From NCBI GenBank assembly GCA_965601515.1, contig CBFCWN010000007.1, forward strand, positions 4,992 to 68,991: 64,000 nt of DNA, read 5' to 3'. Source of the DNA: an uncultured Myxococcales bacterium. GTDB taxonomy: Bacteria; Myxococcota_A; Polyangia; Polyangiales; Houyiibacteriaceae. Positions 3,497-61,312 of the stretch are shown here, one piece after another; position 1 is the stretch's first letter, and each line of letters starts with the position of its first letter. The translations under genes and the position numbers were made by a program. The notes beneath the pieces were generated by a model that was not told where the DNA came from, made no database searches, and was given only the letters and a program-made list of their open reading frames with translations.

Positions 3497-4357
3497 TCAA
3501 AGGCCCGCGGCTTTCGCGACCCGGTCGATCGCGTGACGTGGATCCGCCTCTCGCATCAAGCCGTACATCGCGACCGCTCGGGTGACTCCGAGCGCCTCGT
3601 ACTCGGGTAGGGCGTCTGGGGATCTCTGGGCGCGCCAGTTGATGGTGATATCGAGCGAATCGAAGTCGCGTCCCGACGCGTCGCAGAGCTTGCGAAGCGC
3701 CGCCAGTTGACGTTTCAGGTCCTCGAGCGAATCGCTCGGCGCGTACCACCCGTCCGCCGCATGCACCACTCGCTCGAGCGACTTCTGCGTCGTGCCGCCG
3801 ATCAGGATGGGCGGATGGGGCCTCTGCTCGGGAATCGGGAAACTCTTGAAGCCGTGCCACGAAAGGAAATCGCTCTCGTGTTCGACGACGTCGCCGCTCC
3901 ACACCTTCTTCATCGCGGCGACGTAGTCGTCGAAACGGGCGCCACGGCGCTCGAAGGGGGTGCCCATCGCTGCGTACTCCTCGCGCAGCCAGCCGATCCC
4001 AAGGCCCAGTGTGAGTCGCCCGCCGCTGAGAACGTCGATCGATGCTGCCTGCTTTGCGAAGAGAAGCGGGTTGGTCTGGGGCAGGATGTTCACGCCGGTT
4101 CCAAGGCGCAGTGTCTTTGTCGCCGCGGCGACGTGCGCGAGCGAAATCAGAGGATCGACGAACCAACCCTCGGGCGCGATGCCCATCTTCCCCGTCCTGT
4201 TGTAGGGGTACTTCGAGTCGTAATCGAGCGGCACGACGACGTGCTCAAACGTCCATACGGACTCGATCCCCGCGGCCTCCGCGTGTTGGCACACCCCGAC
4301 CATCTGCTCCGCGGTCTGTGGGCCACCTACGTTTATCGAGACGATGCCGACCTTCAT
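3497..4357 (-). CDS. Luciferase-like monooxygenase (LLM) class flavin/F420-dependent oxidoreductase
   Basis: The sequence reads MKVGIVSINVGG...AEAAGIESVWTFEHVVVPLDYDSKYPYNRTGKM...GRLTLGLGIGWLREEY, typical of LLM-family TIM-barrel oxidoreductases. I moved the start to ATG 4357; the track ORF extends to 4504 through an unlikely Gln/Arg-rich leader. Confidence 0.85.
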   Translation of the reverse strand: MKVGIVSINVGGPQTAEQMVGVCQHAEAAGIESVWTFEHVVVPLDYDSKYPYNRTGKMGIAPEGWFVDPLISLAHVAAATKTLRLGTGVNILPQTNPLLFAKQAASIDVLSGGRLTLGLGIGWLREEYAAMGTPFERRGARFDDYVAAMKKVWSGDVVEHESDFLSWHGFKSFPIPEQRPHPPILIGGTTQKSLERVVHAADGWYAPSDSLEDLKRQLAALRKLCDASGRDFDSLDITINWRAQRSPDALPEYEALGVTRAVAMYGLMREADPRHAIDRVAKAAGL

Positions 4358-4367
4358 GGAGCCGACA

Positions 4368-5111
4368 CTACCGCAACTCGACCCACGTTGCTGCTGCTGC
4401 CGCGCAGACGTTTCCGTCGGCATCGTAGACAGCGGTTCCGCAGTAGCTCTTTCGGCCTTCGCGTCCGAGGGACCAGCCTTGGACGACATAGCGCTCGCCG
4501 GCAAAGACCGGTCGGTCGAGGCGGTAGCTCATGCGACCAAGAACGAAGGGTCTGTCGATCCCGTAGCGGTCGATCACCGCCCAGGCTCCGGGACAGTCGA
4601 GAGCGGCGACCACCAGCTCGGGGCAAATCGTCCCATCTCGGCCCACGAACTCCGCCTCGGGTACCCAGGAGCTCGCCACGATGCCCGTGTCGATCGGGCC
4701 CGTGAACAGGCACATGCCGTCACCGCAGCACCGGCCCGTCCCGCACACGAAGCATCCGGGGAAGGGGTGCTTCGCGTATCCGGCGAAGCTCGCTCGGGCT
4801 TCGGCAGCGCGGGTGAAGTCGACCGCGTCCGGTGTGTCGACATCGAGCTCGGTTCGCCGGGCGCACGCGATTTCGACGCCGGCGTCTTCGAGCGTGGCTT
4901 CGTGGCCGCTGGATACCACGTGGATGTCCCGGTCCATCGGGATCGGGCGCTTGAGCGTGACCTCGACCTCGGGGCCGATGTGCTTGCCCACGAGGGCCAC
5001 GGTCCAACCCCCGTTTCCGGACGTCGGGGGTCCGTTGAAGCGGTTCGGCACGCACACGGCGTGGCTCTGGGTTTCGGGTTCGAAGACGGTTGCGGCGTTG
5101 CTCTGGGACAT
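4368..5111 (-). CDS. Hotdog-fold (PaaI-like) thioesterase-family protein
   Basis: It carries HPFPGCFVCGTG, a motif typical of PaaI/hotdog thioesterases. ATG 5111 is preceded by a perfect AGGAGG 5 nt upstream. The track start at 5132 lacks such a site. Confidence 0.7.
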   Translation of the reverse strand: MSQSNAATVFEPETQSHAVCVPNRFNGPPTSGNGGWTVALVGKHIGPEVEVTLKRPIPMDRDIHVVSSGHEATLEDAGVEIACARRTELDVDTPDAVDFTRAAEARASFAGYAKHPFPGCFVCGTGRCCGDGMCLFTGPIDTGIVASSWVPEAEFVGRDGTICPELVVAALDCPGAWAVIDRYGIDRPFVLGRMSYRLDRPVFAGERYVVQGWSLGREGRKSYCGTAVYDADGNVCAAAAATWVELR

Positions 5112-56269: not shown

Positions 56270-58544
56270 CCGCGTCGAGCCGATCGGCACCTCGTACGTC
56301 GAGGTGGCTCTGCCGGTGCCGCTTCGGCGCGTGTTCACGTACGCCGTACCCGATGCGCTGAAGGGCAAGCTCCGCTGCGGCAATCGAGTCGCGGTTTCGT
56401 TCAACCGTCGCAAGCTCGCGGGCGTCGTCGTGTCTGGACGGGACGACCTGCCCGATGGGGTGAAGCGCGCGCTTTCGGTCGCCGGGACTCTCGAGCCGGA
56501 GCCCGTCTTCACGCCCGAGCTCCTCAGGTTCCTCGAGCAGGCTGCGAAGTACTACATGCATCCGCTCGGTGAGGTGCTGCGTGCGGCGGCGCCGGCGCTT
56601 CCGACGGGCGCGATGAAACGGCTTCGCAGCGACGGCTTTCTCGACGCTGAAGAGAGTCTCCCGGGCGAGCGCGTCGCGCACCACACGACCTGGTCGATCA
56701 CCGCGGCGGACGGCAGCGAAGAAGGACACCGACTCGGTGCGCGGCAAAAGCGCGCGCTCGATTTCGTGCGGTCCGAAGGTTCGGTGCTGCTCGACCAGCT
56801 GCGTACCGAGGTGAAAGACCCCCGCTCGGTGGTTCGTTCGCTCGCAAACAAGGGGCTCCTCACCTACGAGGAGATCCAAGTGCACGCCGATCCGTTCTTT
56901 CGAACGCCGGTCGATCGCGACACGCCGCCCGATCCGACCGCAGCCCAACAGCACGCGATCGATCGTATTTGCGAGGCGCTACGCGGCGGTGAGGCCGAGT
57001 CTTTTCTTCTTCACGGCGTCACGGGTTCTGGCAAGACCGAGGTGTATCTACGAGCGATCGATCAGGTGCGCGAATCAGGCGGCGGCGCCATCCTCCTCGT
57101 CCCGGAAATCGCGCTGACGCCGCAGCTGGTGGGCCGCTTTCGTGCGCGTTTCGGCGATGACATCGCAGTCCTCCACAGTGGTCTCACGGCGCGTCAGCGC
57201 GAGGACGCGTGGCAGTCGCTTCGGCGCGGCCGGGTGCAGGTCGCGATCGGTGCCCGTTCGGCGCTCTTTGCACCCGTTGCGAACCTTCGTCTCATCGTCG
57301 TCGACGAAGAGCACGACCCGTCGTTCAAACAGGACGAAGGATTTCGCTACCACGCTCGCGACATGGCGCTCCTTCGCGCCCAGTACGCAGGCGCGGTGTC
57401 GGTGCTCGGGAGTGCGACACCTTCGGTCGAAAGCTATCACCGGGCGATCGAGGGGAAGCTGCAGCTGCTGTCGCTTCCGAGCCGCGCGACGGGCGCGACA
57501 CTTCCGAAGGTCGAGCTGGTGGACCTTCGCCGCCACCGCCACGGTCCGTCCGGCCACCCCTGGCTCTCGGGGCCACTCCATTCGGCGCTCGACAGATGCC
57601 TGCGGGGGGGCCATCAGGCGATCCTGTTTCTCAACCGCCGCGGCTTCTCGCCGAGCGTTCGGTGCGTCGAGTGCGGAACCATTGCCGAGTGCCCGGCCTG
57701 CAGCGTCGCGCTGACCGAGCATCGTTCCCAGCGTGCGCTGCGCTGTCACTACTGCGACTTCCATCGACCGATGAACGGCCCCTGCGCCTCGTGCTCCGGC
57801 CGAGAGTACCGCGAGCTCGGGGTCGGAACGGAGCAGTTGCAGCAGGCGGTCGAGGCGTGCTTTCCGGACGCTCGCGTGGCACGGCTCGACCGGGACACCG
57901 CCTCGAAGGACGGCGTCGAAGAGGTGCTCGATCAGCTTCGGCGCCGCGACGTCGACGTGCTGGTCGGTACCCAAATGGTCACGAAAGGCCACGACATTCC
58001 CGGGGTCACCCTGGTTGGAGTCGTGCTCGCCGACCAGAGTCTCGCATTCCCCGACTTCCGGGCCGCCGAGCGCACCTTCCAGCTGCTCGCTCAGGTAGCC
58101 GGGCGGGCCGGTCGCGCAGAAGCGTCCGGAGAAGTGGTTCTCCAGACCTTCCAGCCCGAGCATGCGGCGGTTCGGCTCGCGGCGGAGCACGACTACGAAC
58201 GCTTCTATGCCGCCGAGGTCGAGCAGCGACGCGAGGTGGGTTATCCGCCCTTCGCGCGCCTCGTCACGGTTCGCGTACATGCGGGCGCGGAGCTCGAAGC
58301 GAAGCGGGCTACTCAGCAGCTCGCCGACGTCGCTCGCACCCATCCCGCAGTTCGAGAAGGCGCCGTCCAGGTGTTGGGACCCGCGCCCGCGCCGTTGGCG
58401 AGACTGCGAGGGCGCTACCACTACCGGCTCCTCCTCAAGTCTGCCGACCGAAAGCTGCTCCGCCAGGTTGCGGCGCTGCTCGCCGCCCGGATCGACGAGG
58501 GCCTCTCGCCCGCTCACGCGACGCTAGACATCGACCCGCTCTAG
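56259..58544 (+). CDS. priA: Primosomal replication-restart helicase PriA
   Basis: The N-terminus is YVEVALPVPLRRVFTYAVP. The Walker A is GVTGSGKTEVY. The DEEH box is VVDEEHD. The Cys-rich region is CVECG...CPAC...CHYC...CASC. The start is ATG 56259, overlapping tsaD by 11 nt. Confidence 0.94.
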   Translation: MQTDRVEPIGTSYVEVALPVPLRRVFTYAVPDALKGKLRCGNRVAVSFNRRKLAGVVVSGRDDLPDGVKRALSVAGTLEPEPVFTPELLRFLEQAAKYYMHPLGEVLRAAAPALPTGAMKRLRSDGFLDAEESLPGERVAHHTTWSITAADGSEEGHRLGARQKRALDFVRSEGSVLLDQLRTEVKDPRSVVRSLANKGLLTYEEIQVHADPFFRTPVDRDTPPDPTAAQQHAIDRICEALRGGEAESFLLHGVTGSGKTEVYLRAIDQVRESGGGAILLVPEIALTPQLVGRFRARFGDDIAVLHSGLTARQREDAWQSLRRGRVQVAIGARSALFAPVANLRLIVVDEEHDPSFKQDEGFRYHARDMALLRAQYAGAVSVLGSATPSVESYHRAIEGKLQLLSLPSRATGATLPKVELVDLRRHRHGPSGHPWLSGPLHSALDRCLRGGHQAILFLNRRGFSPSVRCVECGTIAECPACSVALTEHRSQRALRCHYCDFHRPMNGPCASCSGREYRELGVGTEQLQQAVEACFPDARVARLDRDTASKDGVEEVLDQLRRRDVDVLVGTQMVTKGHDIPGVTLVGVVLADQSLAFPDFRAAERTFQLLAQVAGRAGRAEASGEVVLQTFQPEHAAVRLAAEHDYERFYAAEVEQRREVGYPPFARLVTVRVHAGAELEAKRATQQLADVARTHPAVREGAVQVLGPAPAPLARLRGRYHYRLLLKSADRKLLRQVAALLAARIDEGLSPAHATLDIDPL

Positions 58545-58952
58545 GATGACGAGCGGAATGTGCCGGTTCACGTTCTTCTTGTAGTCGCGCCAGTGTGGAT
58601 TGTACGTCTCTGCGTCTGGCCATATGCGCGCGTACTCTTCTTCGGTCACCTCGCGCGCCCTCACCGACGCCGTCTTTCGTCCGATTTGAATTTTCGCGAG
58701 CGGGTCGGCTTGCAGATTCAGCCACCAGGCGGGAGGCGTTTCCTTGCCGCCGTTCGATGCGTAGATCACCCGCGCGTCGCCCACGGGCATGTATACGAGC
58801 GGAGTCGTGCGTTCGAGCCCTGACTTCCGTCCGGTCGTAGTGAGCAACAGCACCTGTCGACCAAGGCCGAGATTGCTGACGAAGCGGCCCCCGAGAGCCT
58901 TGTAGAGTTTGGTGTGGATACGGCCGAAGGTCCGCCAGTCGCGTCCGCTCAT
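58524..58952 (-). CDS. Ddn/FDOR-A-like deazaflavin (F420H2)-dependent nitroreductase-family oxidoreductase
   Basis: The sequence carries ...VLLLTTTGRKSGLERTTPLVYMPVGDARVIYASNGGKETPPAWWLNLQADP... It is 142 aa. The start overlaps the kstD-like stop (ATGA). The 3' end overlaps convergent priA by 21 nt. Confidence 0.8.
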   Translation of the reverse strand: MSGRDWRTFGRIHTKLYKALGGRFVSNLGLGRQVLLLTTTGRKSGLERTTPLVYMPVGDARVIYASNGGKETPPAWWLNLQADPLAKIQIGRKTASVRAREVTEEEYARIWPDAETYNPHWRDYKKNVNRHIPLVILERVDV

Positions 58953-60679
58953 TCGGCGGCTTCCTTTTCGCTAGCGGCAGGCTCTCGTTGCGCCGCGTCC
59001 TCGGCGGCGAGAAAACCGAACGTGAGCGCGGGGCCGATGGTTCCGCCTGCGCCTGGATACGTGCGCCCCATGACGGATGCGGTGGAGTTGCCGGCCGCGT
59101 AGAGACCTTCGATGACGTCGCCGTTTTCTTTGAGCACGCGTGCACGCGCGTCGGTGATGAGCCCCCCCTTGGTGCCGAGGTCGCCCGGGTAGATCTGGAC
59201 TGCATAGAAGGGGCCCGTCTCGATGGGCCCGAGCGCACAGTTTGGCTTCACAGCAGGGTCGCCGTAGTAGCGGTCCTGGGCGCTCCACCCACGGTTGAAA
59301 TCAGGGTCTTCACCTTTCACCGCATACTCGTTGAAGCGCTGAATCGACGCCTTTGCGGCCTCTGCGGGGATGTCGAGCTGCTCGCAGAGCTCGTCGAGCG
59401 TCTTGGCCTTGTAGAGGTAGCTGCCGTCGCGGTAGCGGCGCGGGAGCTGCTTGTCCGGCATCACCTTACCGGGCGCCACCGGCCCGGCGATGGAAGAGTG
59501 CCGGTACGTCGCGTCGAAGATGTGGAACCAGCGTGGGTTCTCAGCTCCGGTCTTGGCGACGTCGTCGTACATCCCGTTCACGACGTCGATGTACGGCGCT
59601 GCCTCGTTCGTGAACCGCTTGCCGTCCTGATTGAGAAAGAGCCCGTGAGGCAGACTCTTTTCGACGACGAGTACCCAGGCGAAAGGTGACCGTGGAACGA
59701 GCGAGACGGGCGTCCACCAGGCCTCATCCATCAGCCCGAGCTTTCCACCCGCATCGCGCCCCATTCGGATGGCGTCTCCCGTGTTCGACGGGGTGCCGGC
59801 GGTCCAGTCCGTGGTGATTGGGCGTCGCTGATATTGCTGCCGCATCTCGAGGTTTCGCGAGAAGCCTCCAGCCGCCAACATCACGCCGCGGCTGGTTTTC
59901 ACACGCAGGAGGGTGCCTTCCTTGTTGATGACGGCGCCGATGACACGACCGTTCTCGAAGACGAGTTCCTCGACTCCGGTGTTGAGCCAGGCGGGAATGC
60001 TCCGCTCCTTCATCGACATGAGCATGCGGCCCATCAGCGAGTTGCCTGCGCAGAGTTTGGTATCGCGCCCCCAGCGCTTCCGTTTGAAGTGCCGGAGCAC
60101 GTAGAGGAACATCTGCCAAGCCATGAACATCATGGTCTTGAAGCCAACACCGATGGCGGCCTGAGCTTCGCGCGCGGTGATGCCGAACTTGCCGAGGATC
60201 TGCGACTGCGGGTGGGGGCGCCGAAGGCGAATCAGGTCGTCTCGTAGCTGCGCTCCGTCAAAGGGCACCGGGTCCATCGAGCGACCACCCGGTCGGCCGC
60301 CAGGCGCCTCTGGGTAGTAGTCGGTGTACTTCGCAAGGGGCACGTACGCGACGTGCGTCTTCTCGCTGAGGTAGGCGAGTACCCGCTTGCTCTCGCGGAT
60401 GTACAGCCAAAGCCTGTCGTCGGCCACTTCCCCTTTGGTGATGTGTTTGAGGTAGTTGAAGCCGTCTTCGTCGGAATCGGCAATGCCTTCCTTCGCCATC
60501 CCCGGGTTGTTGGCGACCCAGCAGACGCCTCCGGACATCGCTGTGTTGCCCCCGTAGAGATCGCTCTTTTCGACCAGCAGCACGTCGAGCCCGAGGTCGT
60601 GCGCGCGAATCGCGGTGCTCATGCCCGCGGCGCCGCTTCCCATCACGAGTAAATCGACTGTCCGGTCCCACTCCGCCAT
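58949..60679 (-). CDS. kstD: FAD-dependent 3-ketosteroid Delta1-dehydrogenase (KstD)-family oxidoreductase
   Basis: The N-terminal FAD fold is VDLLVMGSGAAGMSTAIRAHDLGLDVLLVEKSDLYGGNTAMSGG. The C-terminus is GPFYAVQIYPGDLGTKGGLITD...GLYAAGNSTASVMGRTYPGAGGTIG. ATG 60679 is preceded by AAGGAG. The track start (60724) lies inside the operator palindrome. Confidence 0.75.
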   Translation of the reverse strand: MAEWDRTVDLLVMGSGAAGMSTAIRAHDLGLDVLLVEKSDLYGGNTAMSGGVCWVANNPGMAKEGIADSDEDGFNYLKHITKGEVADDRLWLYIRESKRVLAYLSEKTHVAYVPLAKYTDYYPEAPGGRPGGRSMDPVPFDGAQLRDDLIRLRRPHPQSQILGKFGITAREAQAAIGVGFKTMMFMAWQMFLYVLRHFKRKRWGRDTKLCAGNSLMGRMLMSMKERSIPAWLNTGVEELVFENGRVIGAVINKEGTLLRVKTSRGVMLAAGGFSRNLEMRQQYQRRPITTDWTAGTPSNTGDAIRMGRDAGGKLGLMDEAWWTPVSLVPRSPFAWVLVVEKSLPHGLFLNQDGKRFTNEAAPYIDVVNGMYDDVAKTGAENPRWFHIFDATYRHSSIAGPVAPGKVMPDKQLPRRYRDGSYLYKAKTLDELCEQLDIPAEAAKASIQRFNEYAVKGEDPDFNRGWSAQDRYYGDPAVKPNCALGPIETGPFYAVQIYPGDLGTKGGLITDARARVLKENGDVIEGLYAAGNSTASVMGRTYPGAGGTIGPALTFGFLAAEDAAQREPAASEKEAAE

Positions 60680-60704
60680 CTGCGGCGCTCCTTTGCTGGC
60701 TACG

Positions 60705-60730
60705 GTTCTAGGAAAATAGAACATGTTCTA
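60705..60730. promoter_or_regulatory. KstR-type (TetR-family) operator candidate: perfect palindrome TAGAACATGTTCTA plus an extra half-site
   Basis: TAGAACATGTTCTA at 60717-60730 fits TnnAACnnGTTnnA. A third half-site TAGAAC (minus-strand reading of 60705-60710) lies 6 nt away. The palindrome is 37 nt upstream of the kstD-like ATG. Confidence 0.55.
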
Positions 60731-60748
60731 GCGACGGTGCGATGTCAA
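60720..60748 (-). promoter_or_regulatory. Candidate sigma70-type promoter of the kstD-like operon
   Basis: On the minus strand there is a perfect -35 TTGACA (60748-60743). A 17-nt spacer follows, then CATGTT (60725-60720) as a weak -10. The -10 and part of the spacer are covered by the palindrome. Confidence 0.4.
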
Positions 60749-60796
60749 TCCCCGCCGGATCTTGCGGGCCATGGTCCCAAGGCTTAAGTAGTCGAG

Positions 60797-61312
60797 GTGA
60801 TTCGGCCCATCCTCACGTACCCCGACAAACGGCTCCGAGAGCCGGGCAAAGACGTGGACGTCTTCGACGACGAGCTGCGCACGCTGATCGACGACATGGC
60901 CGAAACCATGTACGCCGCGCCCGGCGTCGGCCTCGCTGCCACCCAGATCGGGGTGGCAAAGCGCCTCTTCATCGTCGACACCGCCACCAGCGACGACGAG
61001 CCGAGCGACCTCCGGGTCTTCATCAATCCCGAGATCGTGGCGATCGAAGGCGAGACCACCTTCAACGAAGGCTGCCTCTCGTTCCCCGGTGCGACCGAAG
61101 AAGTCGAGCGGGCCGCTAAGGTCACCGTGCGTGCGCTCGACCAGGACGGTACTCCCTTCGAGCTCGAGGCCGAAGGGCTTCTCGCGATTGCGATTCAGCA
61201 CGAGAACGACCACCTCGACGGCAAGCTCATGATCGACCACCTGAGCATTCTACGCCGGCGGCTTCTCCACCGTGCCATGACCAAGCGAGCGGCGGCCGAC
61301 GCCGCGCAGTAG
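60797..61312 (+). CDS. def: Peptide deformylase
   Basis: The start is GTG. The three motifs are GVGLAATQIG, EGCLSFPG and HENDHLDG. Confidence 0.95.
   Translation: MIRPILTYPDKRLREPGKDVDVFDDELRTLIDDMAETMYAAPGVGLAATQIGVAKRLFIVDTATSDDEPSDLRVFINPEIVAIEGETTFNEGCLSFPGATEEVERAAKVTVRALDQDGTPFELEAEGLLAIAIQHENDHLDGKLMIDHLSILRRRLLHRAMTKRAAADAAQ

Follow-up and report, generated by a model that had tools for sequence, protein, structure and literature searches.

A conserved KstR-type operator motif before a kstD-like operon in an uncultured Polyangiales-type myxobacterium

The 64,000-nucleotide stretch of contig CBFCWN010000007.1 analyzed here (hereafter “the window”) comes from an uncultured Myxococcales bacterium and carries a short operon composed of a gene resembling kstD, which encodes 3-ketosteroid delta1-dehydrogenase, and a gene for a predicted F420H2-dependent reductase (Table 1). 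Just upstream of the operon lies a palindrome which an earlier note, made from the letters of the sequence, had interpreted as an operator of KstR. KstR (Rv3574/MSMEG_6042) is the TetR-family repressor of a regulon in Mycobacterium and Rhodococcus and binds TnnAACnnGTTnnA (Kendall et al., 2007, PMC1995591), a 14-bp inverted-repeat motif which the window site TAGAACATGTTCTA fits. All positions given by the earlier note for the palindrome, the TTGACA, TAGAAC and AAGGAG motifs, the ATG, the ATGA overlap and both coding sequences were found to be right when re-read in the sequence.

Table 1. Coordinates of the kstD-like operon and its promoter in the window, and of double operators in related loci (locus:first site/second site)
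Feature	Position	Strand	Remarks
Perfect palindrome TAGAACATGTTCTA, 14 bp	60717-60730		KstR-type operator (predicted); read in sequence, unique in window
-35 hexamer TTGACA	60748-60743	minus	Perfect consensus; 12 nt 5' of palindrome
Inferred -10 CATGTT	60720-60725	minus	Inside operator; from 17-nt spacing alone
Extra TAGAAC half-site	60705-60710	minus	6 nt 3' of palindrome (after TTTTCC)
Shine-Dalgarno AAGGAG	60688-60693	minus	8 nt before ATG 60679
AcmB-type 3-ketosteroid delta1-dehydrogenase homologue, 576 aa, FAD_binding_2	58949-60679	minus	Profile, PDB and residue matches
Ddn-type FDOR-A, predicted F420H2-dependent reductase, 142 aa	58524-58952	minus	ATGA overlap with kstD-like gene
Double operators in related loci	L057:9934/9963, L058:9942/9969, L060:2277/2304, L076:9928/9966, L065:6804/6840

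The first gene encodes a 576-aa flavoprotein (PF00890, E 6.5e-77) with a GSGAAG dinucleotide-binding motif at residues 14-19, and its best NCBIfam matches are two KstD models (NF009478, 579 bits; NF005882, 564 bits). Its closest PDB entry is 7P18 (481.6 bits full length, 43% identity), i.e., AcmB, the cholest-4-en-3-one delta1-dehydrogenase of Sterolibacterium denitrificans, which belongs to a KstD subgroup with a membrane-associated domain (PMC9736390). Although only 43% identical to AcmB, the window enzyme has the extra segment that defines this subgroup: residues ~156-208 align to AcmB and are absent from Rhodococcus KstD1. The aligned catalytic residues are also the same in both enzymes (Y121, Y363, Y541 and G545 in the window for Y118, Y363, Y536 and G540 in AcmB), the glycine being the one that we take, with the help of the KstD1 alignment, to be the backbone catalytic residue. 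Catalytic roles of the tyrosines have been described for AcmB (Y363 as base, Y118 and Y536; PMC9736390). In a neighbor-joining tree with KstD1 as outgroup, the clade of the window enzyme falls inside the group of kstD genes that are borne by ksh/hsa clusters, and AcmB branches deeper. The KstD-like character proposed in the earlier note is supported by the best structural match, the residues and the phylogeny. Overall, these data support an AcmB-type, KstD-family dehydrogenase with intact catalytic residues and predicted activity, which by analogy with AcmB is probably membrane-associated. The analogy concerns the proteins; in its surroundings, the window gene has an FDOR gene on its 3' side and the KstR-type operator motif on its 5' side.

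Two irregular cases among the relatives were set aside: a 716-aa protein on an ENA contig (P0101), which looks like a KstD-FDOR fusion, is an artefact of a frameshift (past GLYAAG the sequence is out of frame, so that the catalytic YPGAG motif is lost and translation runs on in the FDOR frame), and a second kstD-like open reading frame (ORF) in locus L008 is merely a 139-aa shadow ORF. In the metagenome-assembled genome (MAG) HKST-UBA22 (L047), two differing kstD-like proteins, MCA9531969.1 and MCA9532452.1, have accession numbers 483 apart, and this bin holds either two kstD-like genes or a mix of two Sandaracinaceae-like genomes.

The ATG at 60679 lies 37 nt past the palindrome. The longest ORF (591 aa) opens at ATG 60724 (60722-60724), in the center of the palindrome; the Shine-Dalgarno stretch AAAGGAGCGCC is kept across related loci and most homologues are 576 aa long, which indicates that 60679 is the true start, not 60724. 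Gene calls of 591 aa by JGI (P0336, P0339) start within the operator, which is thereby hidden in a mis-called coding region. An Rfam search of the leader region gave no family at E <= 1, so that no structured RNA was seen there.

The placement of the palindrome had been described in the earlier note as textbook repressor occlusion, with the site covering the -10 position and a third half-site further downstream. What stands of this is that the site follows a perfect and conserved -35, and that TAGAAC is present where it had been reported. However, CATGTT is no recognized -10: it fits the consensus at 3/6 positions (A2 and T6 present), and because of this a simple sigma-70 consensus scan called no promoter for the operon, a point against an operator that acts on the promoter core. 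We infer that the overlap of operator and -10 is one of geometry. The third half-site position is mostly CGAAC or degenerate in 50 related promoters, and this half-site is probably non-functional.

Taken alone, the fit to the KstR pattern is weak evidence, with at least one match to the loose pattern TnnAACnnGTTnnA in 22 of 100 shuffles of the window. The exact palindrome occurs once in the window even when three mismatches are allowed. We judge the palindrome to be real because of comparative data, drawn from 79 loci that encode relatives of the 576-aa enzyme (1.28 Mb in all, from a scan of one genome per species). These loci contain 70 sites of the form TAGAACNNGTTCTA (TAGAAC-NN-GTTCTA), nearly all of them just 5' of the orthologue, and with few exceptions the loci have the motif immediately before the gene as long as protein identity is ~55% or more. 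Within the close clade we compared 50 promoters, all non-identical in sequence: the palindrome arms are invariant in 50/50 and the central dinucleotide alone varies. In 47 of these loci, exactly 12 nt separate the TTGACA hexamer from the palindrome that follows it, the spacer itself being unconserved, and the distance from palindrome to ATG ranges from 27 to 47 nt. The palindrome is thus best read as the phylogenetic footprint of a protein-binding site, and not as a chance sequence. A chance or structural origin, or binding of an unrelated factor such as LexA, might be argued from the shuffled windows, the single copy and the negative promoter scan, but appears highly improbable given arms that stay unchanged among 50 diverged promoters whose flanks are not conserved, the absence of any RNA family match, and the doubled operators and sites before KstR genes described below. 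Gram-positive LexA (Cheo) boxes are of the form GAAC-N4-GTTC, and this candidate was rejected on the arm spacing, which is N2 here.

Double operators, 24-38 nt apart, are found before kstD-like or kstR-like genes in distant lineages (Table 1), and come in two half-site flavors, TAGAAC and TGAAAC, at times mixed in one site. Such distant kstD-like loci adjoin a Rieske/KshA_C gene (137 bits) and a gene for an HsaA homologue (421 bits for a cut-off of 450), as well as genes for an HsaD-type hydrolase, an HsaC/BphC-type dioxygenase and an acetylating aldehyde dehydrogenase. In three loci (L061, L065, L069), the kstD-like genes adjoin TetR genes whose products align along their full length with M. 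tuberculosis KstR as the best PDB match (E 1e-15 to 2.5e-20). The recognition helix of this type of TetR protein, VALGTLYRRF, is nearly the same as that of KstR (VAVGTLYRYF), and the L061 protein, as do all family matches listed, has the KstR-type C-domain PF17925 (TetR_C_20), on which M. tuberculosis KstR itself scores 131 bits. KstR-like proteins form a very large family in metagenomes, where one search returned 1,524 clusters at E <= 1e-10 and a second search 3,236 clusters at E <= 1e-20; JGI annotates some of the proteins as cholesterol catabolism regulator.

A T(AG/GA)AAC-NN-GTT(CT/TC)A site is located 17-60 nt before the start of 12 of the 13 KstR-like genes with enough upstream sequence, and more copies precede operons neighboring KstR-like genes, in lineages that span 0.51-0.73 GC. 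In L080, L084 and L091, the KstR-like gene adjoins side-chain degradation genes (OB_ChsH2, Ltp-type thiolases, FadD, paired FadE, SCP2 and P450), and contigs with KstR-like genes also bear ring-cleavage modules. This association, together with the autoregulatory placement, supports the motif as the predicted binding site of KstR homologues, and the window operon is preceded by the same operator arms as occur in steroid clusters that contain KstR. The proposal of a KstR-type operator before the kstD-like operon is supported, since the published core motif fits (PMC1995591) and the same motif stands before KstR homologues and steroid-catabolic genes in related uncultured lineages. A different arrangement is seen in L082:5668-10582 (JACKEZ010000030.1), where a KstR-like gene lies beside an MMPL/sterol-sensing-domain resistance-nodulation-division (RND) transporter gene with DUF1302 and DUF1329 genes, in what looks like an uptake set for hydrophobic substrates, and where the whole 19-kb locus is devoid of the KstR motif.

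Compared with the mycobacterial KstR regulon, the likeness extends to a palindrome of 14 bp that shares its core sequence (mycobacterial sites such as TAGAACGTGTTC are close to the one in the window), to a predicted position over the promoter core (here by geometry) and to a target of the kstD family. In related lineages it further includes homologous TetR_N plus TetR_C_20 regulators, in uncultured non-actinobacterial genomes, and a motif in the regulator's own promoter. Self-repression has been reported for KstR itself (PMC1995591). In contrast to that regulon, the window operon belongs to a Polyangiales-type myxobacterium, stands by itself between def-fmt and priA outside any catabolic cluster, and has no regulator that is seen near it. 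As for the target, kstD is counted within the mycobacterial KstR regulon, as in the earlier note. On sequence grounds, the element, its placement and the target family appear to be those of the actinobacterial KstR regulon; what differs is the phylum, the isolation of the operon, the regulator, which is unseen here, and the presence of an FDOR as partner.

In reviews, KstR is regarded as a regulator of Actinobacteria (PMC6678751, PMC8399759), with KstR homologues absent from bile-acid-degrading Proteobacteria (PMC8399759), and our literature search for Myxococcota gave no paper on either KstR or the catabolism of steroids. Because the palindrome is unchanged before the kstD-like gene in ~50 uncultured myxobacterial genomes, predicted KstR-type control is evidently not confined to Actinobacteria. 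The predicted operator and, in related lineages, the repressor homologue with its autoregulatory site and steroid clusters prove to be widespread among MAGs of uncultured Myxococcota and of other groups outside Actinobacteria. The combination of T[AG][AG]AAC-NN-GTT[CT][CT]A and TetR_C_20 offers a sequence handle to predict steroid-responsive genes in environmental genomes, and points to sediment and soil myxobacteria as candidate, so far unrecognized, steroid transformers.

We consider it fairly probable that a KstR-family TetR repressor, the gene of which would lie in another part of the genome, has its operator in the palindrome and controls a steroid-responsive kstD-FDOR operon. A repressor dimer bound at the palindrome, between the -35 and the transcription start, would cover the -10 position and block RNA polymerase, and, on the model of mycobacterial KstR, it would be released by a CoA thioester that arises as an intermediate when sterols or steroids are broken down. 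Derepression would then yield a bicistronic mRNA with a short leader, whose first product, the AcmB-type FAD-dependent enzyme, would put a C1=C2 double bond into 3-keto steroids, and whose second product, the coupled accessory Ddn-type F420H2 reductase, would act on a quinone or, in ring A of the steroid, on an activated C=C bond. In this case the uncultured Polyangiales lineage would have a KstR regulon for steroid catabolism that is dispersed over its genome, and the operon would be one of its detached parts. Inducer, substrate and reductase function, like the repressor itself, are inferred for this genome.

Several results weigh against this control by a KstR-family repressor. Within the window there is no second copy of the motif. 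Nor is there, in a hidden Markov model (HMM) search of all six-frame ORFs, any TetR gene, as the earlier note had already observed. The same HMM search, applied to the related loci, revealed no KstR-like gene within 10 kb of the operon in ~50 close-clade loci. The contigs of 11 KstR-like proteins all belong to other lineages, among them named Myxococcales/Myxococcota MAGs, and none to a close-clade MAG (records JACKEZ01, CP070734, CAYTZH01, JAYKCV01, JAMYFZ01, JARPNH01, CAMYLJ01 and JAZHBT01). The 576-aa protein also falls under the KstD equivalog cut-offs (579 vs. 789 for NF009478 and 564 vs. 788 for NF005882); these thresholds are narrow, and the KstD models are still its top matches. On the other side, since the operator is so strictly conserved, a KstR-family repressor is presumably encoded in the genome of the window.

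Two candidate regulators were discarded. The first is a TetR gene 4 kb upstream of the operon in L042 and L055, the product of which matches KstR across the helix-turn-helix only and lacks TetR_C_20; in one subclade this generic TetR gene and a 382-aa gene are inserted beyond fmt, a few kb upstream of the operon (L042:5972-7738, L055:2795-4600). The second, P0299 (MDH3212465), comes from a San Francisco Bay MAG batch which also includes three clade members, and was assigned to another MAG because it lies ~12,700 accession numbers from MDH3199766, the nearest KstD-like protein of the clade, and because its contigs have 0.695 GC against a clade median of 0.64.

The genomic surroundings are those of a housekeeping region. 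The operon is flanked by a convergent priA, with overlapping 3' ends, and by a divergent def-fmt pair followed by a cobalamin adenosyltransferase gene. The families listed for the scanned window ORFs (the best 25 of 67) are housekeeping ones (pnp, rpsO, bioB, aroC, ctaB, coaE and others). As further points against a steroid-responsive operon, no steroid-pathway family was detected among those listed, in agreement with the earlier note, and the close clade has no steroid-catabolic neighbors of the operon, the adjacent genes there being def, fmt, priA and tsaD. This isolation among housekeeping genes lends some weight to a co-option of the module away from steroids, in which another regulator or a KstR paralogue would bind the operator, the flavoprotein would act on a terpenoid, cyclohexanone carboxylate or quinone-related lipid, and the Ddn-type protein would be a menaquinone/quinone reductase. 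The unmet equivalog cut-offs, the 4-oxocyclohexanecarboxylate dehydrogenases among the related NCBIfam models, the lack of KstR near the operon and the menaquinone reductase role given to FDOR-A1 enzymes (see below) can all be cited in its favor. We nevertheless regard co-option as possible but unlikely, given the four KstD catalytic residues and the AcmB-type insertion that are kept, the nesting of the gene among kstD genes adjoining kshA/hsaACD, and operator arms that are the same as in KstR-containing steroid clusters.

The gene order fmt-def / kstD-like (FDOR) / priA-tsaD recurs in ~45 MAGs, and genomes with the operon have been labeled Polyangiales, Myxococcales, Sandaracinaceae or Deltaproteobacteria by many independent submitters, consistent with the myxobacterial type of host suggested in the earlier note. 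GC is flat across the window and the base composition of the operon equals that of its surroundings. The horizontally acquired module also envisaged in that note is thus not borne out as a recent event, considering this composition, a synteny shared by ~45 genomes, and nearest relatives that are non-actinobacterial AcmB-type kstD genes. The kstD-like module is instead old and vertically inherited in the clade at a fixed def-fmt/priA site.

Some myxobacteria make sterols. The module might therefore serve endogenous sterol tailoring, with both enzymes remodeling ring A of a 3-ketosterol made by the host itself and the repressor sensing a sterol-derived metabolite. The myxobacterial lineage of the host and the stable inheritance of the operon in a housekeeping neighborhood, away from catabolic genes, would suit such a role. 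It seems improbable to us, as the scan of window ORFs revealed no gene for the making of sterols, the clusters in which sister lineages have the enzyme are degradative ones (with KshA-, HsaA-, HsaC- and HsaD-type genes), and the reductase is often lost.

That reductase is encoded by the second gene, the ATG of which overlaps the TGA of the kstD-like gene, and through this overlap it is predicted to be translationally coupled to it. The 142-aa product matches PF04075 (118.7 bits, cut-off 22) and TIGR00026 (97.4 bits, cut-off 46.35), and its best PDB matches are the deazaflavin-dependent nitroreductases 3R5P, 3R5L and 3R5R (89 bits). These matches agree with the identification made in the earlier note and support a Ddn-type FDOR-A, predicted to be an F420H2-dependent reductase. 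Like Ddn (Rv3547) and the FDOR-A1 enzymes of Actinobacteria, the window protein is a PF04075/TIGR00026 member of similar size with an N-terminal extension; unlike them, it is encoded in Myxococcota and coupled to a kstD homologue. FDORs are given for Actinobacteria and Chloroflexi in a 2021 review of F420 (PMC8498797).

The FDOR gene is intact with the 4-nt overlap in 26 of the 49 informative loci, present as a remnant in two and absent from 21, which include all six outgroup loci; this distribution suggests a gain at the base of the clade followed by several losses. Remnants or partial matches 3' of the kstD-like gene were located at L025:11783-11869 (29 aa), L031:11742-11810 (23 aa) and L044:1513-1755 (81 aa). 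The FDOR is thus accessory and dispensable in many genomes and, with FDOR-A1 enzymes regarded as menaquinone reductases whose enone activity is promiscuous (PMC8498797), this counts against a steroid role for the second gene. The enone-reductase partnership advanced in the earlier note is, for both of these reasons, speculative.

A more far-reaching version of that partnership would make kstD-FDOR a two-step ring-A module under steroid control, in which the dehydrogenase forms the 1,4-dien-3-one and F420H2 reduction of C4=C5 then gives a 1-en-3-one for the oxygen-independent 2,3-seco route of denitrifying steroid degraders. We give this version little credence; if true, no F420-dependent step in steroid metabolism would precede it, and an FDOR-A would for the first time have a physiological function outside Actinobacteria, in abundant sediment and soil myxobacteria and within a KstR regulon widespread beyond Actinobacteria. 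In any case, the tight coupling of KstD-like and Ddn-type genes points to steroids as a possible new class of substrates on which F420H2-dependent reductases could be tested. Use of F420 by the host would be plausible given a second predicted F420 enzyme in the window, an ORF at 3500-4504 on the minus strand that matches the F420-dependent LLM-class oxidoreductase model TIGR03619 (244 bits for a cut-off of 167). No F420 biosynthesis gene was seen among the scanned window ORFs, and a BATS-domain gene considered as the F420 synthase CofG/H turned out to be bioB.

Finally, the divergent def-fmt pair has a candidate promoter of its own on the plus strand (60762-60799), with TTGCGG (60762-60767) and TAAGTA (60785-60790) separated by 17 nt. 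It ends 6 nt short of the GTG of def (60797), so that the transcript of def would have no leader, and the same geometry recurs in L007, L012 and L016 (TAGAAA/TAGGAA, with the GTG 6 nt on). The -35 of this promoter is 32 nt from the operator, and def is thus probably outside operator control.

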